DNA of 64,000 bases from a virus (taxonomy: Duplodnaviria; Caudoviricetes). Within the stretch, counting starts at the first letter, position 1. Every line of letters begins with the position of its first letter. The DNA lies in IMG/VR virus record IMGVR_UViG_3300029288_000139, positions 19,534 through 83,533 of that record; one strand, 5' to 3'. Below, one piece after another: positions 8,320 to 33,705 of this stretch. Made by a program: the position numbers and the translations under genes. The notes under the pieces are model-generated. The model saw only the letters and a program-made list of their open reading frames with translations. It made no database searches and had not been told where the DNA came from.

Positions 8320-8320
8320 C

Positions 8321-8686
8321 TTAATCTCCCACCATTCTTTCTCCGATAGCTTTACAAAAGCCATAATCCATATAATTCTCTACACTAACAACTTTGTAGT
8401 ATTCATTTCTCCACATAATCTTATCGGAGAGACCAGAAGTGCCTTCATTATGAGTAACATAAATCAATTGCGTAGAATGGAACATCATGGCTCCTCTTAT
8501 TCTATCTCCTTCAAGTTTCTGTGACATATCCTTTTCTCTAGCAACTTGAATAACTCCACGCATTGTTATTTGAGTTGGAGTTCCTTCCACCCATCTCCCA
8601 TTAACCCATTCTCCATTCGAACGATACACAACAAAATCTTGAGCATAAGCTGCATTCAATATAACTTCAGCCATTTGAAAAGGCAT
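8321..8686 (-). CDS. Head closure / head-tail connector protein
   Basis: G.WVNGRWVEG, SDKIMWRNEYYKV and DYGFCKAIG motifs. Confidence 0.65.
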   Translation of the reverse strand: MPFQMAEVILNAAYAQDFVVYRSNGEWVNGRWVEGTPTQITMRGVIQVAREKDMSQKLEGDRIRGAMMFHSTQLIYVTHNEGTSGLSDKIMWRNEYYKVVSVENYMDYGFCKAIGERMVGD

Positions 8687-9183
8687 TATTCTTCTCCTTC
8701 AGAAATTACATAAGTGATAGCATTTCTCATTTGACCTGTATCTATAAGTATTGCATTAGATCCTTTCGCTTTAATTGTAGCAGGTTTTAATGGAGGCCAT
8801 CCATTCTTAGGATTTTCAAACCATGCATGAACTCTATTCATAACATCATTACCTGTTGTTTTCATCAAACTTTCTGCTTTACTAAATTCTTCATCCATAA
8901 TTGCTTCTGCAATAAGTTTTAAATCAACTGCAATAGCTATTTGATTTTCTTTGTCATCCAATGCCGCTTCAATAACAGGTCTTGAAGGAATATTCATCAG
9001 AGGAGAACCATGAGTATGAATATAAAGCAAAGTAGGATTATTCATTTCTCCTTCTTTCCTTTCAGCATTTTCTTCAGGAATACCAACAAGAATTTCTTTT
9101 CTTTTCAGCTTCTTTATTGTTTCAATTAATTTCTGCTCTTTTTTCATAGCAGCTAAATGTTCTTTTACTTCAAAATTTATCAT
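8686..9183 (-). CDS. Neck / virion morphogenesis protein
   Basis: HTHGSPLMNIPSRP and PLKPATIKAKGS..LIDTGQMRNAITY motifs. Start at ATG 9183. Confidence 0.7.
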   Translation of the reverse strand: MINFEVKEHLAAMKKEQKLIETIKKLKRKEILVGIPEENAERKEGEMNNPTLLYIHTHGSPLMNIPSRPVIEAALDDKENQIAIAVDLKLIAEAIMDEEFSKAESLMKTTGNDVMNRVHAWFENPKNGWPPLKPATIKAKGSNAILIDTGQMRNAITYVISEGEE

Positions 9184-13200: not shown

Positions 13201-13561
13201 TTGCATCAAACGTCCCTCCATCAACAGTATATGAACGAATAAAACCACCACCATCAACAGAATCATGAAGATGATAAACACCACCATTACCAATAGTTAT
13301 CGTTCCATCATGATTATCAATAACAGAGGGAGAGGTGTAGACACCAGCAGACAGGTAATCATTTACAGCTATCCATCTGGTGTCTCCACCATTAGTGGTA
13401 GATAAAGTCTTGATGTGATCTATTGTCTGACCACTATTTGGTACATAAGCATAGTGATGACCAGTTTCTTCCACATAACATTTTTCTCTTGGTCTCCCAT
13501 GAGATTCAGCATCACTTACTGTATCAAAATACAAATTTTTTATCTGGTTTTGATTTAACAT
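10271..13561 (-). CDS. Large fibre-like virion protein with HNxL..LQGG..YYHLT repeats
   Basis: Six LQGG/YHL repeats and modules shared with 19591..21327; lies between capsid and neck genes. Confidence 0.6.
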   Translation of the reverse strand: MLNQNQIKNLYFDTVSDAESHGRPREKCYVEETGHHYAYVPNSGQTIDHIKTLSTTNGGDTRWIAVNDYLSAGVYTSPSVIDNHDGTITIGNGGVYHLHDSVDGGGFIRSYTVDGGTFDASNPIPHYIVVNYNGGTPVMQCIEDYSSINGTTIIPILIICYNVVTSPNAFDIIDWGEQAKAVASNTKLRFLFAGTNGVEDGVFQLSVFDTRKIKITGGNRWYGLSRINYDLFETGVGDCVLREWVKDGGGNWSPSIVSEYDNKSYQGASGKTPLVNNYGVIWVYRKLSTTDPLGTVAGYIFGNDDYNKLSDAQATTPPTYANIPPIFVSFGIFVGRIIIDKRNDDPVEVDSAFSYLFGASTPEHNDTLHKQGGSEVLDEFYHLTLDQYNNLGTGEHNTLSGLQGGSVFPEEFYHLTKDQYDNLGVYDHNGLINLQGGSASPEEYYHLTQSEYTFLSSIPEPVDNYDFLVGAGGSVDYNLIDDDCTSLSGWTYDNNVWSLAGGGFYFNNIGDSGALLPNPSITFAGLTATLEIRTEFISLDDHENSADFRMYWAFDSSYLLDIFWCQDGIWTFNPSFVMYKICDNDYNDTTWKIEFDSINGSVSFYKNGTLVSTFDTPVNAFVVPFFQFEACESTEGYVLPSIRVGDGIASGDLYWSRKSLAETEAILSHNNLHGLQGGSSSPEEYYHLTAEQYLNATSVASESSLGLVQIGTGLTITGEGVVSVPLGGGLGLAEGEIVVLIGNGIDINEEGRVLVDETELDHNLIGNLQGGSVSPEEYYHLTSAEHVVVQNTSGVNTGDQSSEDFTHNDLLGLEGGGGSPESYYHLDKIDYDALTDVNAQLEELHSDGSPTFDTVTATLADIGTIHAVYSDSTTQTITSTTVPWAMTFDTEEISDTHITHGKSGEVTISIASPAVISWTGHGLNVDSEVVFTTDGALPTGLTAGTRYYVISAGFGVDSFQVSATPQGAAINTSDTQSGTHTATNISIFTIGTAGTYGFIFSTLCDCTSGNGTTVDIWFRKNGVDVDRSNTRVQIATASNVVISIADIILDLIVGDEIEMFWVGSSTNDRILAVAAQVSPTRPATPSTILTIKKVSK

Positions 13562-13573
13562 TTTTACCTCTTT

Positions 13574-14497
13574 TTATAGGGCTGGACATTCAACTTCAAA
13601 AACATCTCCAACATCCATAACGTAATTTATACTAAATGATCCAGAAGATTCCCATTCAGCTTCAACATTTCTTTGTAATTCAACACCATTTAATCTTATT
13701 TTATAAAGATTATTATTATTCCACAAGTCTTCTGTTACAGGCAGAACTATCGTGCTACCAGAAGGAATAACAGTTGGCGTTGCTCTTCCACTTCCAGACC
13801 CATTTCCAGTTGTTATTGTTACAACTTCCCCACTAGCATAAGCAACAGTAACGACATAAGAACTTACCAAAGAAGTTACATTCTTTGGCTCCACTACCAT
13901 TTCTTCACTTCTTCCACCTTCCATCAACACATCAGGTTGCTGACTTTCAATATAAACTTTATTCACACAAAAGTCAATTGTCTCTGATATTGCAGTCAAT
14001 GTAAGAGTTCCATCTCCCGCAACATAAACAAAGGAAATCTGAGTATTTTCTGCACCACTTGCTCCAATTGCAGCACCTTCAGAAGATCCACTTGCACATT
14101 GAATTAATCCATAAACTGTAAATTCTTCACCACCCACATTACAAGTAATTTCATTGTGAGTAAAAGAATCTCTTATAGGAACTAAATTGAGAATGTTCCC
14201 AACAGAATCTGAATAATTCGCTGTAGAAGCTCCTAAAGGACCAGCCAATAAAGCTGCACAAACACCTTGATTCGTTGTTAATGTTACAGGAGGAGTCGCA
14301 GTAAGAACGGCTAATCTGACTCCTGGTAAGTGAGTAGTAGAGTCAATTCTTGCAAATTGTTCAGCACTCACAGATACAGACTGGACTTCTTTCCAAGGGA
14401 AAGCCAAAACTCTTTTTCTATTCATATACTGATCAAGAGTCGTCCATGTTCCAGCAGAATTAGGTCTTAAAATATTAACCTGCCTAGCATTAATCAT
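13574..14497 (-). CDS. Hypothetical virion protein
   Basis: C-terminal LNGVEL...WESSGSFSINYVMDVGD module is paralogous to the C-terminus of 14494..14829. Confidence 0.5.
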   Translation of the reverse strand: MINARQVNILRPNSAGTWTTLDQYMNRKRVLAFPWKEVQSVSVSAEQFARIDSTTHLPGVRLAVLTATPPVTLTTNQGVCAALLAGPLGASTANYSDSVGNILNLVPIRDSFTHNEITCNVGGEEFTVYGLIQCASGSSEGAAIGASGAENTQISFVYVAGDGTLTLTAISETIDFCVNKVYIESQQPDVLMEGGRSEEMVVEPKNVTSLVSSYVVTVAYASGEVVTITTGNGSGSGRATPTVIPSGSTIVLPVTEDLWNNNNLYKIRLNGVELQRNVEAEWESSGSFSINYVMDVGDVFEVECPAL

Positions 14498-15328: not shown

Positions 15329-16303
15329 TTAAATGCCATCGGCATAATACATCGTTTCCGGATACACGATTTCAACTACACCAAGACGACCGAAATAAGT
15401 CGTCAAATGGTAAATCGAACGATACTCCAACGGAGTTCTCTGCAATGGAACCAACGGATAACGAACACGATTCTTGTCCTGAGTATAAACAATCATACGA
15501 TCAGTTGCTACTGCAGGAGAACCAGCCGGAGTTCCTCTTCCTACCAACCATTTGCAAGGCTGAATATCAAGTTTCTTACCATTGATCTTCAGAGCAATAC
15601 AATTATCTTCCAAGAAGGACAGAATGCTTATGTTGCCTGCATCAGAAACTTTTTGAGAAGTAATATAGGCAAACTGTGCCGGAGGAAGAAGAAGTTTGGA
15701 GGGACACACTGCGTATGCTGCTGCCGCCCAACATGCCTGGATAAGACTGTTAACATCTTCCAGAATTTCATCAGGCGTTTTTTCTGTCCACAGAGTACTA
15801 CCAGCAGCACCAGTCGCAACTGAGGCAGAGGTAACATTGGGATTATTCAGCATTCCATATCTGGAAAGAATATCATCCCCAATATATACCATTTCATCAA
15901 CATCCATCTGGTATTTAATCTGCATGGCCTGATATTTCTGAGCATCAACCGGACGACCTAACTGCTGAGCAGAAATCAACTCCGGAATGGTGTAAGAAAT
16001 TTCAATGCCCCACAGATACAAAGGTGAACTGGTCTTCCCAATATCAAGAGCAGGACCAGGAATAGCATTGGAATTTTTACCAATCCAGTTTTTACCATTG
16101 GTCTCAGGGGCACCAGCAGTCGCAAAAGAGCTGTTGGTGAAACTGGAAACTTCATCAGCGATGCTAACATCTTCTCTTAAATCAATATCACGACCCCACG
16201 TGACATTGTAAAGGGGTTCATGCAGATTCTGGTCTAATCTTTCAAGCTCTCCAATCAGGAAAGCACCCGTACTATCAATTGTATATTTGTCGTATGTCAA
16301 CAT
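15329..16303 (-). CDS. Major capsid protein (DUF2184 / encapsulin-like HK97 fold)
   Basis: MLTYD...GAFLIGELERLDQ, TWGRDIDLREDV, DRMIVY and GRLGVVE motifs; strong codon bias. Confidence 0.92.
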   Translation of the reverse strand: MLTYDKYTIDSTGAFLIGELERLDQNLHEPLYNVTWGRDIDLREDVSIADEVSSFTNSSFATAGAPETNGKNWIGKNSNAIPGPALDIGKTSSPLYLWGIEISYTIPELISAQQLGRPVDAQKYQAMQIKYQMDVDEMVYIGDDILSRYGMLNNPNVTSASVATGAAGSTLWTEKTPDEILEDVNSLIQACWAAAAYAVCPSKLLLPPAQFAYITSQKVSDAGNISILSFLEDNCIALKINGKKLDIQPCKWLVGRGTPAGSPAVATDRMIVYTQDKNRVRYPLVPLQRTPLEYRSIYHLTTYFGRLGVVEIVYPETMYYADGI

Positions 16304-16336
16304 ATTTTATAACCTCCGTTTAATTTATTTTGTTAA

Positions 16337-16798
16337 TTAAATATTAAAAGAAATTTCAACATTACCATTATCGTCAGCTGCACCTTCAAATTTAGCTCCC
16401 GTCACAGCAGTAGCTCCTGTAGCATCAGCCTGAATCAATCCAGTTGTGTTATTGACATAAACCGCTCCATCGATAGCTGGAGTTCCCAACGTATTCAGAA
16501 CAGTCATATAACCAGAACGGAGAATATCACAGGTCTGATTAACTGAAGGAGTTCCACCACCCAAACTCTGATTGGTAATATTTTCCATCTGAGTCGGATA
16601 AGGACGGACCAGAAATCCAAGGATTGTACCGGAACCAGCGTAAGGCTGAATCTTACCAGCAACTTTAACAACCGGAACACCATAAACGGTAACCGGAGTA
16701 TCAGGATCCATAACATTGGGTTCAATTTTCGCAACTTCCAACCGTGTCACCGCACCAGCAATTCCAGCCGGCATTCTATACAAAAACGCATTACTCAT
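16337..16798 (-). CDS. Capsid decoration / cement protein
   Basis: FLYRMPAGIAGAVTR, GFLVRPYP and GNVEISFNI motifs; between scaffold and major capsid genes. Confidence 0.8.
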   Translation of the reverse strand: MSNAFLYRMPAGIAGAVTRLEVAKIEPNVMDPDTPVTVYGVPVVKVAGKIQPYAGSGTILGFLVRPYPTQMENITNQSLGGGTPSVNQTCDILRSGYMTVLNTLGTPAIDGAVYVNNTTGLIQADATGATAVTGAKFEGAADDNGNVEISFNI

Positions 16799-16828: not shown

Positions 16829-18304
16829 TTACTTTCTTTTCCAAAACTCTTTGTTTTTCTGATTGATGTCTCTGATAGAAGAAACACTTTCAGCAGTATT
16901 TGAAATGACAGAATCTTTTACGAATCTGTTATTTCTATCTTTGACTGAATTTGTTACAGCAACAAAGGCAATACCCAATGAAGTTCTGTCAAGCTTATCA
17001 ATATCCGTTTTCTTGATGATCGAACCAACGACATCAGCATCAGAAGTAAATGCAGCCTTCAAAGCTTTTCTCTTAATCTTGTCTAAAGAATTCAAGTGAT
17101 CTTTTGTAGGCTTAGAAATTCTGATGCCAGGACAAAGCAAGTCCGCTCTATAAGCCACATCATGAAACATTGAATCTGCTGTCATTGCTTCTTCTTTTTC
17201 CCGCTCTTCCTTCTCATCAGGATCTTCATCTTCTGTTTCGTCTTCTTTTTTCTTTTCAATCTCTTCATTTTCAGAATTAACCACAAAAGACTTTCTGATT
17301 AAAGAACCTCCCAAAGGACTCAAAGCTCCTGTTCCTTCAGCATCATTTTCAAAAGCTTTGTTCTCTTTTTCAAGAACTTCTTCTGTGTTAACTGTATCAG
17401 CATCTCCTGCAACTCCAGAAGCAGACTTTACAAAAGCTTCAATAATACCTATCAGTCTATTGATATTGTTATTTAACATTCCAATAGTTACTTCTGACTC
17501 TGAAACTCCCTGATTAACAGGCTCCTTAGCAATTTCTTCTCCTTCCTTAGGTATTATGGCTTCTTCAGAAGAAGAATTTCCAGCTTCTTCTTCGATCTGA
17601 TCAGAAGCTACCTCCACTAGCTTATCAGCTTTCTCTTCTTCGGACAACTCTACAAAATCATCATCCTTGATGAGTCTTCGATAGGCTTTTTTCAACTTGT
17701 CTTTAAATTTCATAGCATCTTTTTCCTCCTTATCATTTGTATTATTACAAGTACATTTACCACAATTGGTACACGCCTTATCTCCTATTGCACACCTATG
17801 CCCTGCCCTCCCTCTCATTACTAAAGCAATATGATTACCAATTATATTTTTTTGGATACCTATTCCAGTTTCCAACTGTTCATAATCAGCATCATACCCA
17901 CAAGAAATTTCTCTCATACCATTTTTAACCAATTCAATAGCCTTCTTAGTTGTCACAACAATATCTCCAATAAGAAGATCTAATTTTTCTCGTGCTCCCC
18001 TTCTTACATTGGTTAAAAAACCATGAGCTAAATCTCCCCAATTTTCAGGGGTGACTATTTCATCTGGGTGGTCAATTGTGAATGGTTTCCCTTCAAAAGA
18101 TGAGATTGCTTCTGGTTTGAAAACCTCATCCTCTGTTCTTTTGATAAGAACCAATCCATCACGATTAGGTTCTATAGGAACTTCGTCTCCTTTATATGTT
18201 TGTTCCCCAATCTTTGCAATGGGAACATCATAACAAATTAAAAACCCTTCTGGAGTCTCTCCAATATGTTCGCTTATCTTTTCTGCAACATAAAATCTTT
18301 TCAT
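16829..18304 (-). CDS. DUF2213 prohead protease / scaffold
   Basis: TPEGFLIC, EGKPFTIDHP, REISCGYDA and GNHIALV..GRAG..CAIGD motifs; acidic scaffold region. Confidence 0.88.
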   Translation of the reverse strand: MKRFYVAEKISEHIGETPEGFLICYDVPIAKIGEQTYKGDEVPIEPNRDGLVLIKRTEDEVFKPEAISSFEGKPFTIDHPDEIVTPENWGDLAHGFLTNVRRGAREKLDLLIGDIVVTTKKAIELVKNGMREISCGYDADYEQLETGIGIQKNIIGNHIALVMRGRAGHRCAIGDKACTNCGKCTCNNTNDKEEKDAMKFKDKLKKAYRRLIKDDDFVELSEEEKADKLVEVASDQIEEEAGNSSSEEAIIPKEGEEIAKEPVNQGVSESEVTIGMLNNNINRLIGIIEAFVKSASGVAGDADTVNTEEVLEKENKAFENDAEGTGALSPLGGSLIRKSFVVNSENEEIEKKKEDETEDEDPDEKEEREKEEAMTADSMFHDVAYRADLLCPGIRISKPTKDHLNSLDKIKRKALKAAFTSDADVVGSIIKKTDIDKLDRTSLGIAFVAVTNSVKDRNNRFVKDSVISNTAESVSSIRDINQKNKEFWKRK

Positions 18305-18315
18305 ATTTTCAATCC

Positions 18316-19587
18316 TTACATCACAACTATCATTTGTGGTTTAAATGATGAAACAGGCGGAACTGGTGTTTCTGTCGCACTAATTAACGCTCCTGCCGTT
18401 CCATTCTCCCTGCCATATCCAGTGGGGCCTGCTGGAGCCTTTAAAACATAATAAGTGAAACTAACTATATCACTTGTAGGAAGAAGTGTAGTATCACATC
18501 CATATACAATTTGCATACCACCACCCAAATCAATAGTATACTCACCACTTACAGAGCAGTCAAAGGGGATGGAATTAATTGTAACAACTTTAGTCGTTGC
18601 GTTCCATGAACTCCCCTCCACAGGATCTATGCCATAAGGTAGGCCTAACTCTTCTGTCATCGATACGAGCCAAAATCCAGCTAAACCAAAACCATCATAA
18701 CTAACTGAATCACCTATCTGAACATCATTAGGACTTGGTGTATCAGTAAGAGACCCCTGATTCCAAGTTGATTGAATGGTTACTTTATTTAATCCAACTC
18801 CAGCAATACTCCCTGTTCCATCACATTGCTGTGCGCCTACTGATGTTACGTTGGTTAATGAAGCAGTTGAATCATTGGCATTAAAATCATATCCTTTACT
18901 CCAGACCGTACAACAATTTAACTTTCCAGAAGTTATGGTTGGATGGTATAACTCTGTAAGATGAGTAAGTGTTAAGTTTTCAACCTTCCCTCCAGTAAGT
19001 CGAAATTTATTCATTAATAAATGGTCTCTCATACCTAACAGTCGAACAGAAGATGAAACGTCTACATGATCACCAATCCATGATAAGTCTTCATCAATTA
19101 TTGATTCATAGACAAGAACAACACACTCTGTTTCAAACGAACCTCCGTAAACAATAGCATAATATGACTGTGTCCATGTTGTAAGGTCTTTCCCAGTACC
19201 CAGTGTAAAATAACCACCTGTATAAGGTGCACCTTCAACTGTTATAGTTCCTGAAAAGGTACTAGAAAGAGTAGCAAATGTAACAGTGTCTCCATAGAAA
19301 ATTTCTTCTGTTACAGAGTCTTTTCCAAAAGCTCTGACAGAATAAGTTATTCCCGGCATACAGCCATACATCGGAGTAGTTTCTGTTGTGTTCTTTATAT
19401 AAGCTCCAACAGCTAAATCGCTTAACACTTTTTGAGTATTAGCGTCATAAACAGGTGTTCCTGTGCCTTTCATCCAACAAAAGCCATATTCACTAAGAGC
19501 ATTGTCTTTTGAAACAAGAGTTCCGTTGAAAGTAAAACCAAACTTTCCTATATTAGTTGGAGCCTGTGTTGTTATTACATTAGCCAT
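18316..19587 (-). CDS. Virion protein with N-terminal FN3-like domain
   Basis: EYGFCW...PGITYSVRAFG...FYGDTVTFAT pattern. Confidence 0.5.
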   Translation of the reverse strand: MANVITTQAPTNIGKFGFTFNGTLVSKDNALSEYGFCWMKGTGTPVYDANTQKVLSDLAVGAYIKNTTETTPMYGCMPGITYSVRAFGKDSVTEEIFYGDTVTFATLSSTFSGTITVEGAPYTGGYFTLGTGKDLTTWTQSYYAIVYGGSFETECVVLVYESIIDEDLSWIGDHVDVSSSVRLLGMRDHLLMNKFRLTGGKVENLTLTHLTELYHPTITSGKLNCCTVWSKGYDFNANDSTASLTNVTSVGAQQCDGTGSIAGVGLNKVTIQSTWNQGSLTDTPSPNDVQIGDSVSYDGFGLAGFWLVSMTEELGLPYGIDPVEGSSWNATTKVVTINSIPFDCSVSGEYTIDLGGGMQIVYGCDTTLLPTSDIVSFTYYVLKAPAGPTGYGRENGTAGALISATETPVPPVSSFKPQMIVVM

Positions 19588-19590
19588 TTA

Positions 19591-21327
19591 TTACTCCTGA
19601 ATCTCAAACCAAATATTCAATCCCTTTGCTGGGGTGGTATGAACATAATCAACATTAAATGTAATTATATCTCCTTTAACAACGGCAGGATTTGAAATCT
19701 CTGTTTGAGGCGAATTATTCCTTGAAGTCTTTTCTCCACTATTTATTTCTATCCTAACATCAGGTGAATCTTGAAAAATGGTTGTTCCATTGACTAATAT
19801 ATCAACAGTCATGGGTTCTTCAGGACTGTTTGAATCACTTCCTGCTATTGTATTGTAAGCACCACAAGCAACTATATTACCAGTTATTGGACATTCAAAG
19901 TCTCCTCCCAAACTTGTTCCTATTGAACAATTAGTGTCATGAGCAACTAAAATAACTGTAACAGATCTTATAGCCGATGCCATGCTTTGAACAGCTGAAA
20001 GTTCTGCAGCAGTTAAGTGATATCTTTGTCCAGCCTGACCTCCTTGCAAAGAACTTAAATCATTGTGAGTAAAATCAGAAGAAGATTGGTCTCCTGTATT
20101 ACTACCTGATGTATTTTCAATAACTGTTTTCTCTGCACTTGTTACATGATAGTATTCTTCAGGAGAAATTGACCCTCCCTGTAAATCTGATATATTATTA
20201 TGAGAAATATCGGAAGTTAAGTTATGAGTATTCTGTAAACTGTTATGGTCAAAGTCACTAGAATCTTGATCTCCTGTATTACTACCGCTAGTGTTCTGAA
20301 CTACTGTATGTTCTGCAGAAGTCAAATGATAATATTCCAACGGCGAATCTGAACCACCTTGTAACATGTTTAAATAATTATGATCAGTCTGAGGTTCATC
20401 AACAGTAAGAACTCCACCAGCTGTTATAGTCAATCCATCCCCAACAATCACCCTTCCTAAAGCACCTGTCGTTGCAATATTCGCACTCCATGAAGCATTA
20501 CCTTGAGTATCAGAAATAAGAATACTTCCTGCAGCTCCACCTGTATATAATCTTATGGTTGCAAACGTCGGAGAACCATCTCTCTGCAAATTTTCCAACT
20601 GAGCCATAGCATCAGTCAGATATCCATAATCAGCAGCATTCAAATGATACATATAACTATTTATAGTATCACCACCTTGTAAAGATTGCAGATTATTATG
20701 CTCAATATCTCCTTCAAGTATTGCTCCGGTTTCGGCCAATGTTTTCTTTGACCATCTTACGGGAGAACTATCGCCAATAAGAAAATCATTTTCATCAACT
20801 GGATAATCAATATCCCAATTCGCTTGAACAACATCCCAATAAGCTCCAACGGCAGTTTCATCTCCAACAGGCGTTCCGTCATGATTACAAAATATAGTGT
20901 CTCCAACTTCTACAACCTTTCCATTGACTCCACCTATTCTACCAGCAACAGAAACTTTCCATGCCCATCCAGCATCAGCAGCAGGATAATTTGGATTCGC
21001 TGAGCAATCAATAACTCCTTTATACTCGAACACATCATGAAGACCAATGTCTTCCGGTATTAATGTAATGTCTCCTGTCAAAGCATGACCATTAATTTTT
21101 GTTGTCTTTGGTACAAAAATAGCTTCAAACGGAGTCATATCTAATGGTAGTCCTGAAACAATTGAACCGTCAGGCAATAACCATTTTGCTGGAAACCATT
21201 GATGTTTTACATACCAATCAGCTCTTTTTGCATCTGCTGGAGCCCACATAGCACCAGCAAAGGTTTGTATTGAACCATCGGGCATCAAGAACTTATTTGG
21301 AAAAGGTATTTCATTAACGTATGACAT
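19591..21327 (-). CDS. Fibre-like virion protein with HNxL..LQGG..YHLT repeats
   Basis: Four LQGG/YH repeats; modules shared with 10271..13561. Confidence 0.6.
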   Translation of the reverse strand: MSYVNEIPFPNKFLMPDGSIQTFAGAMWAPADAKRADWYVKHQWFPAKWLLPDGSIVSGLPLDMTPFEAIFVPKTTKINGHALTGDITLIPEDIGLHDVFEYKGVIDCSANPNYPAADAGWAWKVSVAGRIGGVNGKVVEVGDTIFCNHDGTPVGDETAVGAYWDVVQANWDIDYPVDENDFLIGDSSPVRWSKKTLAETGAILEGDIEHNNLQSLQGGDTINSYMYHLNAADYGYLTDAMAQLENLQRDGSPTFATIRLYTGGAAGSILISDTQGNASWSANIATTGALGRVIVGDGLTITAGGVLTVDEPQTDHNYLNMLQGGSDSPLEYYHLTSAEHTVVQNTSGSNTGDQDSSDFDHNSLQNTHNLTSDISHNNISDLQGGSISPEEYYHVTSAEKTVIENTSGSNTGDQSSSDFTHNDLSSLQGGQAGQRYHLTAAELSAVQSMASAIRSVTVILVAHDTNCSIGTSLGGDFECPITGNIVACGAYNTIAGSDSNSPEEPMTVDILVNGTTIFQDSPDVRIEINSGEKTSRNNSPQTEISNPAVVKGDIITFNVDYVHTTPAKGLNIWFEIQE

Positions 21328-21339
21328 TATAATTGCTCC

Positions 21340-22323
21340 TTATAACATTGTTTTGAAAGAAAACTTTAAAGCTTCATAAATATCTCTACCTTGAGCTTTT
21401 GCATCATAATATATTTCTTTTGCTTTCTCATAAGTAATGTCCTTGCCATATACATTCTTGGCTGTTGCTTGTATAAATCTTATTTGAGTGTCTTCTGATT
21501 TATTATATTCATCATCTTTTGTTTTGGAGTCTTTTACTTTATTCTGGTCAATTAATCTTCGTGCTGTTGTTCTTGCTCCAAGCAAAGTTTCTTGAACTCC
21601 TTTATAAATCTCCCTACCATTTTTCTGTATTGTAAATTCAAAAACATCTTTCCCATACTCTCTAACAGAAATTTTATAGTCTCTGTAATCGTCGATCCAC
21701 ACGTCTTTTGTTTTGGAGTCTTTGCTTTCTCTAAATCTCTTTGCAACTTCCTTCTGGCCATCATTAAATCCGTCATTCCAAGAATCTTTCAAATCTGCGT
21801 AACCAGATCTTGAAACATTTGTATATGGATTCGCAGAAGAAGACTTACCCATCAATGCAGCTTCATGACCTTCATCATACGCTTCTTCGGAACGAGAATC
21901 ATCTTTTGTTTTGGAATCTTCAACCCAAACCTGCTCTGTTTTACCATTTGGATATCTGATTTCTATGTGTTGTCTTGGTTTGGGGTCACTCCAATATTCA
22001 AATTGACCTTCTTTAGCTTTTTTCTTTAACTCTTCAATTGTCATGGATTTTGTACCAAAAGAAGATGTCCCTGCATCTTTTGTTTTGGAGTCTTTTGATA
22101 GATTATTATCTATTCTCTTTTCAATTTCTTCTAAGGTAAGATATTGAATTTTATCTCCTGCACTACCAATATAATAATATCTGGTCTGTCCAATATGACT
22201 ATCCACATCTTTAAAAATATCGACTCCCTTATAAGTCAAAAACTTTTCACTATCTAACACCAATTCTCTTTGTCCTGAAATTATTCTTCCATTCTTAATG
22301 TCTTTGATTTTGTGAAGTAACAT
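21340..22323 (-). CDS. Modular polyprotein: five small domains separated by DSKTKD linkers, one of them RMF-like
   Basis: Four DSKTKD linkers; MLxxxI..KNG leader; AYDEGHEAALMGKSSSANPY...WNDGF domain. Confidence 0.7.
   Translation of the reverse strand: MLLHKIKDIKNGRIISGQRELVLDSEKFLTYKGVDIFKDVDSHIGQTRYYYIGSAGDKIQYLTLEEIEKRIDNNLSKDSKTKDAGTSSFGTKSMTIEELKKKAKEGQFEYWSDPKPRQHIEIRYPNGKTEQVWVEDSKTKDDSRSEEAYDEGHEAALMGKSSSANPYTNVSRSGYADLKDSWNDGFNDGQKEVAKRFRESKDSKTKDVWIDDYRDYKISVREYGKDVFEFTIQKNGREIYKGVQETLLGARTTARRLIDQNKVKDSKTKDDEYNKSEDTQIRFIQATAKNVYGKDITYEKAKEIYYDAKAQGRDIYEALKFSFKTML
21514..22094 (-). repeat. Four copies of an 18-21 bp in-frame repeat (plus strand RTCTTTTGTTTTGGARTC) encoding DSKTKD
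   Basis: Copies at about 21514, 21703, 21901 and 22075; further copies at 26778 and 27958. Confidence 0.9.
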
Positions 22324-22334
22324 TTTATCCTCCC

Positions 22335-23240
22335 TTATGCTGCTTTCAAAAATTCTTGTTCTGATATTTTCATAAATTCTCTTTTATTCATTCTGACAAT
22401 TTTTCCACCAACATGTACTCTTGCTGGCCAACTCACATCATCAAGCCTAATAAGCGGAGCTGCATAACAACGACAATTGAACGTAGCTCCCGGCAAATAA
22501 TCCCCATACGGTTTTGCCTTTCGATCAGGAAACAAAGCTTCTGGATTTGGAGGATCATTCCATGTACATAAAACATTATCCATCTTCCTATGAGCACTTC
22601 TTGTTCTTCCATCTCCAGAATATCCCCCCGTAGCTTTCCATACAAACCAATTTAATCCGATCTCTTCTGCCCTTGCCTTCACCATATTTGTAACCATCTT
22701 TGAAGTTTCTGTTCTGGCAATAAGCATGGCTCGGGATTTTGTAACTATTCCTGTTTGTGACAACTCCTTAGCAACTGTTTCCGCTCTTGTCCCTGTAGTT
22801 AAATTATTTCTAACAATTTCTTGTATTCTTTCCGCAGCACTTAATGGAAGAGAAGTGATTAACTTAACATTATCTCGTATAAAAGCATCCATTGCTTCTT
22901 TTATATTTGCTCTTGCTAATTCTCTCTTCATTTCCTCACTCATTCGTTCTGAATGCTGTTCCCATTCCTTTATATCTTCATTCTTCAAACTATAAACAAG
23001 CTTTGTTACTGTTTGCTGTGCCCAATCTTTTAATCTAACAGAATAATCATGTAATCTATTTTGAACATTCTCAATATCTTCCAATGTAACTTTGTCTTTA
23101 TTTGTATCTAATTTCTTAGTAAAGTCTTTCACAATACTATCAACTTCACGACCAACATTAGCAAGGTTTCTAGCATACTCTTGTTCAATTCTTTTAGTAA
23201 GTTTCTTGCTTACTATTCTGTTGGGTTTCTTCTCATCCAT
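22335..23240 (-). CDS. Head morphogenesis protein (MuF / SPP1 gp7)
   Basis: RAMLIARTETSK, DGRTRSAH and PGATFNCRC motifs. Confidence 0.9.
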   Translation of the reverse strand: MDEKKPNRIVSKKLTKRIEQEYARNLANVGREVDSIVKDFTKKLDTNKDKVTLEDIENVQNRLHDYSVRLKDWAQQTVTKLVYSLKNEDIKEWEQHSERMSEEMKRELARANIKEAMDAFIRDNVKLITSLPLSAAERIQEIVRNNLTTGTRAETVAKELSQTGIVTKSRAMLIARTETSKMVTNMVKARAEEIGLNWFVWKATGGYSGDGRTRSAHRKMDNVLCTWNDPPNPEALFPDRKAKPYGDYLPGATFNCRCYAAPLIRLDDVSWPARVHVGGKIVRMNKREFMKISEQEFLKAA

Positions 23241-24989
23241 TTACGTTTCCTTTGTAAAAAACTTTTTTGCTACTTCTTTTGCTGCATTTTGTATCTTTTC
23301 TTTCATCCCAGAAAAATTCAAGTTTATCTTTAAAGGACTTACTACTTCACTAATTGATTTCACTCCGGGTATTGCATTAGGAACTTCGTCTCTCTGGCTT
23401 TCTTTTTCCTTTTCAGAGATTGATTGAGCTTTACCAACAATTGGAGACATAGTTGATTGAGCCTTCATTTCTTCCGGTGTTGGAGATGATAAACTAACAC
23501 CTCCTCCTGAAATTCCTACATCTTCCTCTTCTTCTTTATTTTGAGAAGAGGGTTCTACTTCAGACTCTGGGACAGAAGGAGACGGCATCCCCTCAGAAGG
23601 AATCCCAGAAGGAGGCTCATTCTCATCATCTTTCTTGGCCTTATTAATATCATCTTCAGTTAAATTCGTAAAGCGTCCTGTGATTCTAGATGATTGAATT
23701 AATTCTTTTGTTGCTATTTCTTTACTTACTAATCCTCCTGAATAAGCAGCATTAATTGTTGTCATATCGGAGGTTGCTATTTCAGCCATCTCTTTATCGC
23801 TCATCTGCCATAATGAATTGAACTTATACTCAAAATCAGGAGGCAATCTCTTTCCTAACTCCGAAACTGAAAGAACTTCTAACAATTTTGTCATGGAAGG
23901 ACGTAATTTATTTTCTTGCTCACGATAAACATTGTCGTAGTAATTTCTTAAATCAGTTTCCCCAGTATTGAATCCTGCAGGAGATTGTCCAAATAATCTA
24001 ACCAATGGTATTCCTGTAGCTCCAGAAACTTGCTGTCCTAATTCTTGTAGTAAATCAGCAGCCCCACTAATCGCTGAATTCGCATGAGGTACAAAATCGT
24101 CTAGCCCATCAAGCATTGTTATTCCTTCGTTTGTTTGCATCTGTCTAATATAATCCCATTGCTTAATGATGGCGTTCTCTTCTCTCCCACCTAACGCCAA
24201 TGCTTCTCTTAATCCGTTAATCTTAACAACTCTTAAGTATGCTCTGTACATTAACTGACTAGCTCCAAGAGTCGCTGAATCATAAGCAATCAGTCTGTCA
24301 TATATTCTCTCTACAATAGAAAGTCCCCAATGATTTTCCATCAACCTTTGATAATAAGGAAGGGTAATTCCATCAAATCTTAATACACGACTATAATGAA
24401 TTTTAATGTTAGGAAGTTTTGAACCACCGACGGATGTGTGAACTCGATAGAATTTTGGTTTCCCAAAATCTTTATTAAGGTCGGTTATTAAATTGGATAG
24501 GTCTGGTTCACACATCCATCGATCTAACACCAATAACCCTCTAAAAGTTTTTTGTCCTATCTTGTCGTAATCAATTGGCTTACTATAATCTGCTCCGTCA
24601 ATAAGCATAATGGCAATAGCACCGCCATATAATCTTGCCCATCTTATTGTATTACCTAATGATTCCCAAACATCAAAATCAGACATAGCAACATACAACT
24701 TTTTAACTTCATCAGGGGACAATTTTGATAAAATGTCAATACCCATCTTTGTCATATCTTCAGCAATAACATCAACAGCCTGTCCAATTAACCATGAGCT
24801 TCTATATCCTGCCTCTAGAGTAACTCTTTGTCTACTCATTAAATTATTTAATGAGTAAGTGGCTTGAGACATTGGATTATCAGTTCCATATCCAACTCTG
24901 TGCATGAAATTGGAGAAGGAGTCTTCTGTAAATTTCCCTCCAACTTTCTTATCCATTGTAGAAGTTCTTGTAAAATTTACTTTTGCCAT
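23241..24989 (-). CDS. Portal protein (HI1409 / DUF1073 family)
   Basis: YRSSWLIGQAVDVIAEDMT, WARLYGGA, IHYSRVLRF and ATGIPLVRLFGQSPAGFN motifs. Confidence 0.92.
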   Translation of the reverse strand: MAKVNFTRTSTMDKKVGGKFTEDSFSNFMHRVGYGTDNPMSQATYSLNNLMSRQRVTLEAGYRSSWLIGQAVDVIAEDMTKMGIDILSKLSPDEVKKLYVAMSDFDVWESLGNTIRWARLYGGAIAIMLIDGADYSKPIDYDKIGQKTFRGLLVLDRWMCEPDLSNLITDLNKDFGKPKFYRVHTSVGGSKLPNIKIHYSRVLRFDGITLPYYQRLMENHWGLSIVERIYDRLIAYDSATLGASQLMYRAYLRVVKINGLREALALGGREENAIIKQWDYIRQMQTNEGITMLDGLDDFVPHANSAISGAADLLQELGQQVSGATGIPLVRLFGQSPAGFNTGETDLRNYYDNVYREQENKLRPSMTKLLEVLSVSELGKRLPPDFEYKFNSLWQMSDKEMAEIATSDMTTINAAYSGGLVSKEIATKELIQSSRITGRFTNLTEDDINKAKKDDENEPPSGIPSEGMPSPSVPESEVEPSSQNKEEEEDVGISGGGVSLSSPTPEEMKAQSTMSPIVGKAQSISEKEKESQRDEVPNAIPGVKSISEVVSPLKINLNFSGMKEKIQNAAKEVAKKFFTKET

Positions 24990-25421
24990 TTATCTGAACT
25001 CCAGTGTCTCTTTAAATAAGTACATTTGCATTTCTGTTATCTCACCTAAATATTCTTGGCTTTGATAATGAGCTAAAAAAGCATCACGTGCTGATTCTTT
25101 GTTGTCAAATCCCAACATAATCTTTTCTTCACGATCATCTTTACCGAGTCTAATAATATAAACGGAAGAAGCGTAAGGATTATGACCGACAAAACAATCA
25201 ATGCACTCACCATCAACGCCGACCGTCCCATCAATGTAGCCGTATCGATAGAACATAGTGGTTTTTCCCGTCTGTCCTTCATTATTCTTCCATCTCCTAA
25301 CACTGCCTTCATCATTCTCCACAGTAATAGGCAGTCCTTGAAATGTTAATTTACTTGTTCCACCTTTTTCATTCTTTGGAACTACTGTTCCATTTACAAT
25401 ATCAACTTCTGAAAATAACAT
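24990..25421 (-). CDS. Inorganic-pyrophosphatase-like (InPase) domain protein
   Basis: GLPITVEN..GSVR, YGYIDGTVGVDGECIDCFVG and EEKIMLGF motifs. Start at MLFSEV (25421). Confidence 0.75.
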   Translation of the reverse strand: MLFSEVDIVNGTVVPKNEKGGTSKLTFQGLPITVENDEGSVRRWKNNEGQTGKTTMFYRYGYIDGTVGVDGECIDCFVGHNPYASSVYIIRLGKDDREEKIMLGFDNKESARDAFLAHYQSQEYLGEITEMQMYLFKETLEFR

Positions 25422-25426
25422 AAATT

Positions 25427-25651
25427 TTATTTCTCTTTGTCTTTTTCTACCCAAAAATTATCTATCTTCTGTTTCAAATCTTCCCAAGAAGAAGAATTAA
25501 ATCTTTTATTCTCTTCTCTTCCTAAACCAACAAACTCTCCCTCAGATTGTGATATTTGAAAACCTTTATAAATTAAAGGAGGAATTTCATAAGCGTCTTC
25601 CGTCTTCCTTCTAATCATTCCATTTTCAACTGTGACTTCATTACTTAACAT
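25427..25651 (-). CDS. Small protein with shared MLxxEV..NG leader and KTED motif
   Basis: MLSNEVTVENGMIRRKTED; GGAG RBS. Confidence 0.65.
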   Translation of the reverse strand: MLSNEVTVENGMIRRKTEDAYEIPPLIYKGFQISQSEGEFVGLGREENKRFNSSSWEDLKQKIDNFWVEKDKEK

Positions 25652-25652
25652 T

Positions 25653-27707
25653 TTATTCTCCTTTAGCTGTCTTCTCTTCATCCACCGCTTCCTGCTTCGT
25701 ACTTTGTAATCTGTCCGGTGGATGATTCGGAGGACTGTATAATGTATACAGTTTCAAAGGTTCTTCTCCAATATTTTTTATATTGTGTTGAGTCCCAGCT
25801 TTAATCACAATAGAAGAACCATCTTGAAGAAGTTGCTTTCCTTGGCCTTTTACTTCTAATATTCCTTCTCCTTTTTCAATGCGGAAAAACTGGTCAACAT
25901 CAGCATGAACTTCCATACCAATATCTTCCTCCGGAAGTAATGACATCAAAACCAATTGAATATTCTTGCCAGTAAAAAGAACTTTTCTAAAAGCATTATT
26001 CTCAACTGTTTCCTTTTCAATATTCCTTACATCAAACTCAGGAGTCTTTTCAAAAACAGTATTACCAAAGCTTTCATAACTTTCATGAGTTGGTTCAGGG
26101 TCTACGTCTTTAACCATTCCAACATGCTCGGTAACAATCTTGTAAATCTCTTCTTCCAGTTTATGAGGATCAATACCATTCTGTTCTGCAAAAGCGTGAA
26201 CCTTATCATCACCAGGATTAGGATTTGCTTTAAAGAACGCAATAAGTTTTTCTTTGATGTTGTCTTGATCTTTCGTTTTCTTGTCCCCTGTCTTTACTTT
26301 CTTCACTTCAACATTATTTTTACTTCCATCAAATTCATTCTGTAAAGAACCTTTTACTTTTCCTGCTTTCAATTCCAATGAAGAAACACATTTTGTTCTT
26401 GCTACATCTGGAGTCGGAGCATCTATATTATGGTAATAATGATTTTCACCTTTGAGATTCAAAGTTACATCATACAATTCGTCTTTTATTTTCTTATCAA
26501 CATTACCTACTCTTTCATTTGGTTCTGCTTTTCTTGTCCCTTGTATCTCAGCATTATTACTTTCAACCCATTTCATCATCTCAGTTCTGTTGCTAAAAAT
26601 ACGACGCCATTTTGTATTACTATTTCCTTTTACTCCATAAGCTTCTATTTTTTCATTGTCTTGATCCTTCGTCTTTCTCTTCACAGCTTTCTTCAATGAG
26701 TCAAGTGCTCTTAATGCTGTATCTTTTGCTATGCTTCTTTTTAAATTTTTTATTTGCTTTAAGGCAACTGTTGCTGCGTCTTTTGTTTTGGAGTCTGTCA
26801 CTGTGTTTAATGCTTTGCGGCGAAAAGCTTCTAAGTTCTGAATCATGAATTTAAGACGAATACTTCCAATTGGTGATGTTTTTAACTTTTCAATCTCTTC
26901 ATCAGCATGAGAATTAATTTCATTTCTCGTTGCTTCTTCATAAAAACGTTTATTGCATATAGGGCATATATTAACAATTGCATCTCTCGTCTTCATGTCT
27001 ACAGTTCCTTCCTTCTCATGTATTTCTTTGACCAAATGACCAACAGCTTCTTCTTCAGTACCTTCCACTACAGTATAGGTTTTTCCATTATATTTAGCTG
27101 ATGCAGCAAAATACCCATTTTTACCCTGATTTACTGTCATGTTAATTCCATAAATGGATACTGAATGAGAATCACCAACACCAGCTCTTATACTTTCAAT
27201 TTGTTGTTTCACAGCTTTTATCTCCTCTTCTGTTTCCCGAAACTCTTCTAGGTCTCCTGTAATTCTACAATTGATTTTATATCTTTCTAATTGATCAATT
27301 CTTTTTTTCAAAGTCTCAACATTTGGATTATCATCTCTCAATGTAATTCTTCCGTCACAATGGGGGCAATGTTTTGTGGTGTAAAAGGAAGATTGATCTT
27401 TTCCCCATTTCCTCATTCTTGGTCTTATTACATCTCTTTGGAACTGAGCATTACATTTGGGACAGGCGATAAGATCCTGGTCTTTTGTAATGGAAACAAC
27501 ATAGGGTCTATCTATCCTACCACATCTGGGGCAGGAAATCATAGGACCAGCAATGATTCTGTTTCCTTCAATTGTATAATCATTAGAGGAAATTGTCCAT
27601 CTATGTTTACATCTAACATCATTACATTCAACTACAATATTATTTTCCTCAGAGTCTCTTACAATGATTCTGTTGTCTTTTATTTCTTTTACTTCAGAGA
27701 GTAACAT
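25653..27707 (-). CDS. Large modular polyprotein: Zn ribbons, helical modules and C-terminal cupin, with TKD-type linkers
   Basis: Repeated TKD/TRD/IKD/VKD/VGD linkers; CxxC pairs; cupin motif EVHADVDQFFRIEKG...AGTQHN. Confidence 0.7.
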   Translation of the reverse strand: MLLSEVKEIKDNRIIVRDSEENNIVVECNDVRCKHRWTISSNDYTIEGNRIIAGPMISCPRCGRIDRPYVVSITKDQDLIACPKCNAQFQRDVIRPRMRKWGKDQSSFYTTKHCPHCDGRITLRDDNPNVETLKKRIDQLERYKINCRITGDLEEFRETEEEIKAVKQQIESIRAGVGDSHSVSIYGINMTVNQGKNGYFAASAKYNGKTYTVVEGTEEEAVGHLVKEIHEKEGTVDMKTRDAIVNICPICNKRFYEEATRNEINSHADEEIEKLKTSPIGSIRLKFMIQNLEAFRRKALNTVTDSKTKDAATVALKQIKNLKRSIAKDTALRALDSLKKAVKRKTKDQDNEKIEAYGVKGNSNTKWRRIFSNRTEMMKWVESNNAEIQGTRKAEPNERVGNVDKKIKDELYDVTLNLKGENHYYHNIDAPTPDVARTKCVSSLELKAGKVKGSLQNEFDGSKNNVEVKKVKTGDKKTKDQDNIKEKLIAFFKANPNPGDDKVHAFAEQNGIDPHKLEEEIYKIVTEHVGMVKDVDPEPTHESYESFGNTVFEKTPEFDVRNIEKETVENNAFRKVLFTGKNIQLVLMSLLPEEDIGMEVHADVDQFFRIEKGEGILEVKGQGKQLLQDGSSIVIKAGTQHNIKNIGEEPLKLYTLYSPPNHPPDRLQSTKQEAVDEEKTAKGE

Positions 27708-27788
27708 TTTATTTTGTCTCTCCTCTTTTAAACTGATCTGCTCTTTCAAACAATCTTCTTATTGCTGCATTACTCCAACCGTCATCTT

Positions 27789-28181
27789 TTAAGGACTCTG
27801 TCGTATGTCGGAAAACGTTTTAAATTTCTGCAGATATTCTATTTTTAACGCTCTTATTTGCTCCATAAGGTTTTTCTCTTCTTGACTGCCTACGGCAGTT
27901 TTTCCAAGTTGGTCATCCAACTTTTTAATCTTATTTTCTAAATCTTCTCTTTCTCCGTCTTTTGTTTTGGAATCTCTTTGTCCTTTTAAAATCAAATCTT
28001 GAATTTCTTTTTCAAGCTGTTTAATCTCATATTCAACATCCCCAGTTTCTCTTCCTTCGTTTTTCCAATCCTGCAATCTTCTTTTTGCATCAGAAAGCTC
28101 TTCTCTTAAATCAGATAGTTCACTATCTTTTGTCTTTATTCTTACCATACCATTAACAACATCAACGTCTTTGGATAACAT
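27789..28181 (-). CDS. Modular protein with shared leader and two KTKD linkers
   Basis: MLSKDVDVVNGMVRIKTKD...DSKTKD; two coiled-coil modules. Confidence 0.7.
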   Translation of the reverse strand: MLSKDVDVVNGMVRIKTKDSELSDLREELSDAKRRLQDWKNEGRETGDVEYEIKQLEKEIQDLILKGQRDSKTKDGEREDLENKIKKLDDQLGKTAVGSQEEKNLMEQIRALKIEYLQKFKTFSDIRQSP

Positions 28182-33036: not shown

Positions 33037-33705
33037 ATGAACATAGAAATTAAAAACAGATTTACAAACAAGATTATTTTGTGTGGAGAATACGAATCAA
33101 TTAAGGATTGCTTGGAAAAAAATAGAGGAACAAACCTCGAAGGCGCAGACCTCAGAGGAACAAACCTCGAAGGCGCATATCTCAGAGGCGCATATCTCGA
33201 AGGCGCATACCTCGAAGGCGCATATCTCAGAGGCGCATATCTCGAAGGCGCATATCTCGAAGGCGCATATCTCAGAGGCGCATATCTCAGAGGCGCATAT
33301 CTCAGAGGCGCATATCTCGAAGGCGCATATCTCGAAGGCGCATATCTCGAAGGCGCAAATCTCAGAGGCGCATATCTCGAAGGCGCATATCTCGGAGGCG
33401 CATATCTCGAAGGCGAAAATCTCAGAGGCGCATATCTCGAAGGCGCAAAAAACATAACATTTCCAATTTTAAATATTCAAGGCACGCAACATCATCTGTT
33501 TTATATGTCCGGCAAAATCTCTATTGGTTGTGAAAATCACACCATTGATAAGTGGATTAAGGATTACAAAACCATCGGAGAAGAACATGGATATACGGAT
33601 GAACAAATCAAGGAATATTTTGGTTACATTAAAATCTGTAAAAAGTTAGCAGAGGACAACAAGAAAGAGAAAAAAGATGGACTTTTAAACAAAAAAGGAG
33701 AATGA
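33037..33705 (+). CDS. Pentapeptide repeat protein
   Basis: About 21 A(Y/N)L(E/R)G repeats; C-terminal ISIGCENH domain. Confidence 0.9.
   Translation: MNIEIKNRFTNKIILCGEYESIKDCLEKNRGTNLEGADLRGTNLEGAYLRGAYLEGAYLEGAYLRGAYLEGAYLEGAYLRGAYLRGAYLRGAYLEGAYLEGAYLEGANLRGAYLEGAYLGGAYLEGENLRGAYLEGAKNITFPILNIQGTQHHLFYMSGKISIGCENHTIDKWIKDYKTIGEEHGYTDEQIKEYFGYIKICKKLAEDNKKEKKDGLLNKKGE
33130..33447 (+). repeat. 15-bp tandem coding repeat (gcatatctc[ga/ag]aggc)
   Basis: Visible tandem array encoding the pentapeptide repeats. Confidence 0.95.

Follow-up and report, generated by a model that had tools for sequence, protein, structure and literature searches.

Why should five genes that are interleaved with the head genes of a tailed phage, and that encode otherwise unrelated proteins, open with related short leaders, and why should three of them be strings of small modules separated by one recurring hexapeptide, DSKTKD? 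The genes lie in a 64,000-nucleotide (nt) stretch of DNA (the window; positions 19,534 to 83,533 of the IMG/VR virus record IMGVR_UViG_3300029288_000139, Duplodnaviria; Caudoviricetes), taken from a record of 83.5 kb with an estimated completeness of ~80%. All five are on the minus strand between terL and the gene for a DUF2213 protein. We propose that they encode head-internal cargo comparable to the internal proteins of phage T4 but organised as polyproteins, and we give this whole chain of steps a probability of roughly 0.55. That the products are modular cargo addressed to the head is likelier than this figure, and that they are an anti-defence payload injected into the host is less likely. 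The five genes and their joints, with lengths in amino acids (aa), are these:

27789..28181, minus strand: 130-aa cargo gene; leader at residues 1-19 ending RIKTKD, then two coiled-coil-like modules with a DSKTKD joint at 27957-27974
25653..27707, minus strand: 684-aa polyprotein (length counted from the ML start); leader ending IIVRD, zinc-ribbon modules, about eight more modules and a C-terminal Cupin_2 domain (Pfam, 2e-12); joints at 26982-26999, 26778-26795, 26664-26681, 26481-26498, 26268-26285 and 26106-26120
25427..25651, minus strand: 74-aa gene; leader ending RRKTED and one module that is found elsewhere inside polyproteins
24990..25421, minus strand: 143-aa gene; leader, lying outside the domain and ending without TKD, and a stand-alone InPase domain (PF18823, 6e-31)
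21340..22323, minus strand: 327-aa polyprotein; leader and five modules, the third of them RMF-like; DSKTKD joints at 22075-22092, 21901-21918, 21703-21720 and 21514-21531

Leader peptides, modules and joints

The first-pass annotation, made from the letters of the window and their open reading frames (ORFs), had called the five leaders related, and we found each of them where it had been placed. Position matrices trained on other loci only put the five gene starts at the top of 507 Met positions (z 5.6-9.3). The 130-, 74- and 143-aa genes scored as one class (z 7.7, 7.6 and 5.6) and the 327- and 684-aa genes as another (z 9.3 and 6.4), each with a cross-trained matrix. Three leader classes were seen in all, the third present only outside the window; one reads approximately M-L-S-K-D-V-x-V-x-N-G-M-V-R and another M-L-L-x-[D/E]-[I/L]-K-x-[I/V]-x-N-G-R-[I/V]-I. 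Two classes resemble a hairpin around an N-G turn, a segment that the fold model of the 327-aa protein places at low confidence. Three of the five window leaders, and most leaders of relatives, close with [T/V/I]-[K/R/E]-D, which makes their ends linker-like (x-x-D). Leader-tagged genes also occur in the relatives' loci L001, L004, L011, L012 and L013 (L-numbers, here L001, L004, L008 and L010-L014, denote relatives' loci, and P-numbers, here P0005, P0011 and P0015, relatives' polyproteins). These comparisons of sequence support the view of the leader as a portable tag carried by proteins of unrelated kinds, namely the InPase enzyme, the cupin-ended polyprotein, the mini-domain polyproteins and, in a relative, a DUF3326 enzyme. 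The InPase bears on where the tag leads: its homologues in cultured phages are fused to a portal or minor head protein (cf. PMC5512222), whereas here it is free and leader-tagged, which supports the packaging step.

The cargo block of relatives holds other small genes as well. In L004, a called gene matching the Tad2-like family (PF11195; L004:4665-4922) lies without a leader between the cargo genes and the InPase gene, and at ~5000-5400 an uncalled, leaderless ORF looks by eye similar to it, which places an anti-Thoeris-type sponge family in this block. A small acidic protein with the motif G-[V/F]-[N/D]-P-D-E is encoded between portal and MuF in L004 (8582-8740) and L001 (11055-11243), is absent from the window, and forms the N terminus of a second InPase protein at L012:5826-6431. 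It may be another route by which cargo is attached to the portal region.

The linkers that had been reported between the modules are far more frequent than chance predicts. The six frames of the window together contain six copies of DSKTKD, each of them in the 130-, 684- or 327-aa gene, against 0.002 copies expected from composition; nine of the ten copies of KTKD (0.49 expected) lie in the same three genes. Other joints read DMKTRD, KRKTKD, DKKIKD, DKKTKD and GMVKD. Dividing 46 polyproteins at their joints gave 286 segments (median 58 aa), and the joint logo over these proteins, numbered from the presumptive cut, was D at P6, S at P5, K at P4, T>V>I at P3, K>R at P2 and D at P1, followed by A, D or S at P1'. 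The joints with other codons and residues, such as KRKTKD, DKKIKD and DMKTRD, retain K-[T/I/V]-[K/R]-D, which shows constraint on the peptide as well as on the DNA described below. A literature search for the hexapeptide gave nothing relevant.

Searching 5.8 billion proteins with the 327-aa protein returned 15 relatives, and an exhaustive search of 1.84 billion representatives returned 26. They are metagenomic strings of 35-70 aa modules joined by DSKTKD or near variants; most full-length ones open with one of the three leader classes, and several partial proteins carry none. No match to the 327-aa protein was obtained by tblastn among 50,697 phage records, in which no cultured member was found, and a pattern scan of IMG/VR gave no confirmed relative of it. 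Six more loci keep the order terL, leader genes, InPase, portal, MuF, polyprotein, DUF2213, cement and capsid, with head proteins 39-69% identical among the syntenic relatives and, in some, a portal fused to topoisomerase IB or another extension. We clustered the modules after stripping the joints, because shared joints otherwise chain unrelated modules together. The 192 modules formed 148 clusters, 22 of which recur in other orders and neighbour contexts and 126 of which are singletons. L004 holds a homologue of the 684-aa protein with its modules in another order, and the same module can stand alone behind its own leader (the 74-aa gene; an 85-aa gene in L011) or lie internally or terminally in a polyprotein. 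These results show that the modules are autonomous and shuffled.

The joint is also fixed as DNA. All six window copies of DSKTKD are encoded by the same 18 nt, GAY-TCC-AAA-ACA-AAA-GAY. TCC makes up just 8.3% of the Ser codons of the window, and it encodes the joint Ser in 22 of 25 copies over six loci (P still ~1e-12 when the highest local TCC usage is assumed); the flanking Asp codons of the joint, by contrast, vary freely. Moreover, nt 601-801 of the 327-aa gene are 97% identical to L010:812-1012, a 201-nt module cassette; the identity opens at the first base of one joint and closes within the next, and the flanks on both sides are unrelated. This bounded identity, together with the constancy at silent sites, identifies the joint as a recombination connector or crossover point and shows that related phages exchange, gain or lose single modules through recombination at precisely this point.

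Two further features of these loci were noted. Homing-endonuclease-type genes (GIY-YIG, NUMOD3/HNH-like) are scattered in the head modules of relatives, some adjoining polyprotein genes (L012:2204-2911, 8174-9046 and 15659-16414; L013:7504-8382 and 12909-13577; L014:3285-4100; L008:2108-3133), and could promote recombination at joints. A mini-module of ~17 residues, A-K-D-x-A-L-K-A-L-D-S-L-K-K, lies between two joint-like sites in the window (26664-26777), in P0005 and P0015 and at L013:2415-3281. It faintly resembles L-N-S-L-D-K-I-K-R-K, which follows the K-P-T-K-D site of the DUF2213 protein, and may serve as a tag that binds the capsid or the protease.

The AlphaFold model of the 327-aa protein had a mean predicted local distance difference test (pLDDT) score of 79 and a predicted template-modelling (pTM) score of 0.33, values that indicate confident small folds without a fixed mutual arrangement. 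Only the leader (residues 1-24) and two joints (76-86 and 266-274) fell below a pLDDT of 50; the other two joints lie at helix ends, one of them in a lower-confidence block and the other where a helix starts. Integrated folding across the linkers, which the first-pass annotation had named in advance as telling against its proposal, was not seen in this model. Foldseek with the whole model found local matches only, to RMF and to a small beta domain like that of MmoD, and assigned no fold to the other modules of this protein. The third module scored 21.8 bits against the RMF family PF04957, below its cut-off of 27.9, and the L011 copy of this module scored 29.2, above it. The modelled third module matched RMF in the E. 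coli hibernating ribosome (9iot_y; TM score 0.77, root-mean-square deviation [rmsd] 1.3 over 51 residues) and also the RMF structure 2jrm. The RMF-like module (RMF is a ribosome hibernation factor), the InPase, the cupin and the zinc ribbons are leads toward a role in the host. Module charge is mixed, with a median isoelectric point of 6.8.

The DUF2213 protein and candidate cut sites

The candidate for cutting the joints in the head is the DUF2213 protein. It is listed here with three head proteins and the sites considered below ("/" marks a candidate cut point):

16829..18304, minus strand: DUF2213 (Pa193_gp24 family) protein; N-domain at residues 1-176 with a predicted gp21/assemblin fold and invariant H79, S134 and H158, then a zinc-ribbon-like CxxC cluster, an acidic spacer and a conserved, scaffold-like C-terminal part; candidate self-sites AIGD/K at 17777-17791, MTAD/S at 17171-17185, PTKD/H at 17096-17110 and FVKD/S at 16910-16924
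23241..24989, minus strand: portal (Phage_portal_3, 1e-99); N-terminal FTED, then S, at 24918-24932; T-x-D-S is kept in relatives
22335..23240, minus strand: MuF-like head morphogenesis protein (Phage_Mu_F, 4e-15); immediately upstream of the 327-aa-type polyprotein in every relative seen
15329..16303, minus strand: major capsid protein (Major_capside/DUF2184 type); the first ten residues close with T-I-D, then S (16271-16285), kept in relatives

The DUF2213 protein matched PF09979 over residues 16-176 with 159.6 bits (cut-off 22; E 9e-47). When we submitted the model of its N-domain (pLDDT 89.5) to Foldseek, T4 gp21 came first and herpesvirus proteases next; the domain aligned with gp21 at Z 10.4 (rmsd 3.0, 130 residues aligned), and for the herpesvirus proteases the Z values were 6-8.4. 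When 48,161 representative chains were scanned independently of Foldseek, a Z of at least 8 was obtained only for gp21 (10.0) and the varicella-zoster virus protease (8.4). H79, S134 and H158 were invariant in 60 homologues. The model thus supports a protease fold of the T4 gp21/herpesvirus (assemblin) type for the N-domain, with these three residues as putative catalytic residues. PHROGs label DUF2213-related families as head maturation protease. By phmmer, the protein gave only chance flagellin matches, in its acidic spacer, among Protein Data Bank sequences, and in the literature mentioning DUF2213 we found no functional data. A complex prediction for the protease domain and the 74-aa leader protein scored 0.01, 0.39 and 0.17 (mark 0.32), values that point in neither direction.

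Spots of the pattern [T/V/I]-x-D had been pointed out as likely processed positions in the capsid, portal and DUF2213 proteins; all are there, and most are kept in relatives. In the clade of the window, the capsid N terminus reads T-[I/M]-D followed by S-T-G, as it does in Acinetobacter phage A785.1, and the portal N terminus reads T-x-D followed by S-F. The DUF2213 proteins have an invariant I-x-D after the protease domain and V-[K/R]-D followed by S near the end, and 52 of 70 homologues contain K-P-[T/I/V/A]-x-D. In two relatives the border of the C-terminal domain of this protein reads ETKD-S and DSKTKD-S.

The cultured Pbunavirus PB1 (NC_011810, 65.8 kb), whose DUF2213 protein is gp22, provided a comparison outside this clade. 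A-M-D-S occurs exactly three times in its six frames, at 9330, 14362 and 15400, and these positions fall in the portal-containing minor head protein (at about residue 75), the C-terminal part of gp22 and the capsid protein (residues 62-65). Residue 66 is the first in the cryo-electron microscopy (cryo-EM) models of the E217 and Pa193 capsids, whose authors suggest cleavage of the 65 residues before it (PMC10329688, PMC11456595); we assumed equal numbering for these 382-residue orthologues. The first 93 residues of the Pa193 portal are missing from both the map and mass spectrometry, and a helix-turn-helix piece of the Pa193 DUF2213 protein, gp24, stays beneath the five-fold vertices, "possibly cleaved after assembly" (PMC11456595). 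The position of the capsid A-M-D-S just before the first cryo-EM residue argues for cutting after Asp. A-M-D-S is probably the maturation-site rule of Pbunavirus heads, one that the structure papers do not mention, and from such sequence patterns DUF2213-type heads appear to be processed after Asp.

Under the proposed mechanism, a leader of ~19 residues would direct each product into the assembling prohead, where the DUF2213 serine protease domain would cut after Asp in [T/V/I]-[K/R]-D. Cutting would take off the motif-ended leaders and, at each D-S-K-T-K-D joint, part neighbouring modules of 35-70 aa. The folded products, about as small as T4 IPI*, would stay with the DNA and exit via the tail at infection.

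Readings of the five genes compared

The portable leader, the autonomous modules, the gp21-type protease fold encoded nearby and the apparent processing of DUF2213-type heads after Asp support in part the cargo-polyprotein interpretation of the first-pass annotation. The leaders of the 143- and 327-aa proteins have no linker-like x-x-D end and do not close with TKD; they are among several points that weigh against our reading. Cleavage and packaging in this clade are steps that we infer. At the C-terminal domain border of the DUF2213 protein, P3 is D (26) more often than T (12), so the [T/V/I]-x-D rule is not strict. An hhalign comparison of the DUF2213 alignment with the T4 gp21 sequence gave no alignment, and the kinship of the two is thus structural, resting on the fold and the invariant residues. 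The name head maturation protease derives from PHROG annotation, and the sole structural study of a DUF2213 protein names Pa193 gp24 a putative scaffolding protein without discussing protease activity (PMC11456595). The joint DNA is conserved beyond what the peptide needs, so recombination alone could explain part of the constancy of the joint, and the crossover role partly competes with a protease site as the cause of that conservation. Finally, the modules have mixed charge and mostly no recognisable function, and nothing supports an anti-defence payload directly.

A more specific form of the cargo-polyprotein reading makes the joint dual-purpose, at once an Asp-type cut site for the DUF2213 protease and an 18-nt connector for plugging in cassettes, so that one leader and one reading frame bring a changing assortment of folded 4-8 kDa proteins, including an RMF-like mimic, into the next host with the DNA. 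We regard this as a tentative proposal, with somewhat less than an even chance of being right. Its closest competitor would leave the proteins uncut, as beads-on-a-string multi-domain proteins in the head or elsewhere, with the joint a hydrophilic spacer kept for DNA recombination and not for a protease. The conservation of the 18 nt at silent sites, the 97% identical cassette that ends exactly at joints between unrelated flanks, and the two of four joints in the 327-aa model that form helix ends rather than a free loop all agree with this. It accounts less well for the retention of K-[T/I/V]-[K/R]-D where codons and other residues differ, or for the same motif closing most leaders and sitting at DUF2213 domain borders in relatives, and the occurrence of single modules as separate leader-tagged genes suggests that the module is the working unit. 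We consider uncut proteins unlikely.

Two other explanations keep the location or the timing but drop the delivery. The products could be accessory core or scaffold material (an inner body, or proteins like T4 gp67/gp68) that is cut in maturation, most of its fragments exiting or just being packed with the DNA without a role in the next host. The genes do sit in the head-assembly block beside portal, MuF and the protease/scaffold gene, prohead proteases generally degrade core proteins (PMC10052503, PMC3012670), and the 130-aa protein is coiled-coil-like. A structural role is nevertheless a poor fit to module content as variable as that found here (126 of 148 clusters are singletons, with 26 relatives in 1.84 billion representatives), to the enzyme-like and ligand-like folds (InPase, cupin, RMF-like, zinc ribbons) and to a charge that is neither uniformly basic nor acidic, and we think this explanation improbable. 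Still less probable are late proteins that act in the cytoplasm of the producing cell, their leader being a translation start context, a chaperone or degradation tag or an oligomerisation element, with another protease or no cutting at all. In its favour, what the five gene starts have in common as DNA is chiefly the ribosome-binding region and a few initial codons, and leaderless small genes in the same block (such as the Tad2-like genes of L004) mean that position alone is no proof of packaging. The likeness of the leaders nonetheless lies mostly in their protein sequence and persists between phages whose head proteins are 39-66% identical and whose codons differ, and one leader is carried by an InPase whose homologues are covalent parts of portal or minor head proteins. 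As for another protease, the Peptidase_S78, ClpP and S49 families had no match in the 83.5-kb record; the search for S77 (gp21-type) was uninformative, its control giving no signal.

Three other candidates were rejected: multi-core precursors like those of ribosomally synthesized and post-translationally modified peptides, because the modules are folded domains encoded among head-assembly genes; skipping or frameshifting by the ribosome at the A-rich joint, which has no slippery heptamer and no alternative frame; and a generic DNA-condensing role, because the modules are not uniformly basic.

Related systems and neighbouring genes

The cargo-polyprotein reading has its model in T4, whose internal proteins have just a capsid targeting sequence in common (PMC3012670). 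As with IPI, IPII, IPIII and Alt, unrelated proteins here share only a short N-terminal peptide. In T4 that peptide ends in the gp21 motif, with an acidic P1 and an aliphatic or beta-branched P3 (PMC3012670, PMC12991175), and a motif of this type, here a putative cut site, closes three of the five window leaders; T4 products are small and ejected with the DNA (PMC3012670, PMC12991175), and the small modules here would be ejected likewise. T4 gp21 cuts after Glu in I/L-x-E (PMC12991175). The system described here differs in its P1 Asp, in a putative protease fused to a scaffold within the DUF2213 protein of a Pbunavirus-like head, and in having many cargo modules in one frame with repeated internal sites, at a joint that is fixed as DNA and used for exchange. 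The window proteins gave no Pfam or PHROG match to T4 internal proteins, and the leader and cargo sequences are unlike the T4 targeting sequences and internal proteins; judged by sequence, the leader cargo is an analogue of the T4 proteins, not a member of their group.

The ejection (E) and inner-body proteins of SPN3US, phiKZ and 201phi2-1 are packaged in the head and carry propeptides, some of 20-24 residues, that are cut at A-x-E with Ser at P1'; in SPN3US, gp245 makes this cut and takes off propeptides of 20-24 residues (PMC10052503). Where those giant phages have several cuts, these lie inside propeptides destined for removal, whereas here what separates one site from the next is a folded, shuffled module that itself resembles a product.

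The nearest published concept is that of the polyvalent proteins (Iyer et al. 2017, PMC5512222), multi-domain proteins encoded beside portal and MuF for which packaging, delivery along with the DNA and processing into units have been proposed, with InPase as a marker. The window has these markers in its single-domain InPase protein and in genes flanking portal and MuF. Polyvalent proteins are, however, large, with recognisable enzymatic domains and a proposed processing by an in-chain zincin-like peptidase (PMC5512222). No peptidase family, zincin-like MPTase included, was among the Pfam matches of the 327-, 684- and 130-aa proteins or of the relatives' polyproteins; these are instead mini-domains on one conserved hexapeptide, with entry by a shared and putatively detachable leader. 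In the literature that we searched, we found no description of a leader-tagged phage polyprotein with hexapeptide joints.

Among cultured phages, the head resembles those of the Pbunavirus members PB1, E217 and Pa193, with Phage_portal_3, MuF, DUF2213/Pa193_gp24, cement, an HK97-fold capsid and E217-type tail genes. In Pbunavirus the capsid and portal N termini are missing from virion structures, and x-M-D then S marks both spots. No leader-tagged polyproteins were seen in the PB1 head block, where InPase is part of the portal-containing minor head protein.

If confirmed, the proposal would mean that cargo loading in the form of polyproteins, which the head protease then cuts up, is used by tailed phages beyond the T4 group. 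The widespread, uncharacterised DUF2213 family, which Pbunavirus therapy phages share with many others, would gain both a function and a cutting specificity (after Asp). The proposal also draws attention to hundreds of mini-proteins, so far unexplored and probably the earliest phage proteins that the host encounters, and so to a place to seek defence inhibitors or takeover factors. For packing foreign proteins into capsids, the leader and joint offer ready-made parts, and the constancy of the joint at silent sites clearly exemplifies the selection of a sequence for modular recombination. Were the dual-purpose reading true, the system would be a phage counterpart of viral polyproteins and of gene-cassette arrays alike.

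The minus-strand arm of the window is a myovirus-type virion module. It begins with terS, terL and an 84-aa ORF, continues with the 130-, 684-, 74- and 143-aa genes, portal, MuF, the 327-aa gene, two fibre-like genes and the DUF2213 gene, and ends with the genes for a cement-type protein, the major capsid protein, and the neck and tail. Where relatives carry a C-terminal extension on the portal, the junction is marked by D-F-x-E-x-x-H-P-R followed by G-G-x-x-G-x-F (L001:9930, L004:7548, L011:2130); the extension is topoisomerase IB in L001 and L004. The same motif follows the modules of P0011 (residue 396), and the window portal lacks the D-F-x-E-x-x-H-P-R junction.

The two fibre-like genes (within 18316-21327) have G-G-x-x-S-P-E-E-Y-Y-H-L-T repeats in common with the 1096-aa fibre gene at 10271-13561. 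Their slot between the polyprotein and DUF2213 genes varies among relatives, with Flg_new repeats in L004 and a 1056-aa protein in L011. At 33037-33705, on the plus strand, a 222-aa ORF consists mostly of the pentapeptide repeat A-Y-L-[E/R]-G, which opens long frames on both strands.

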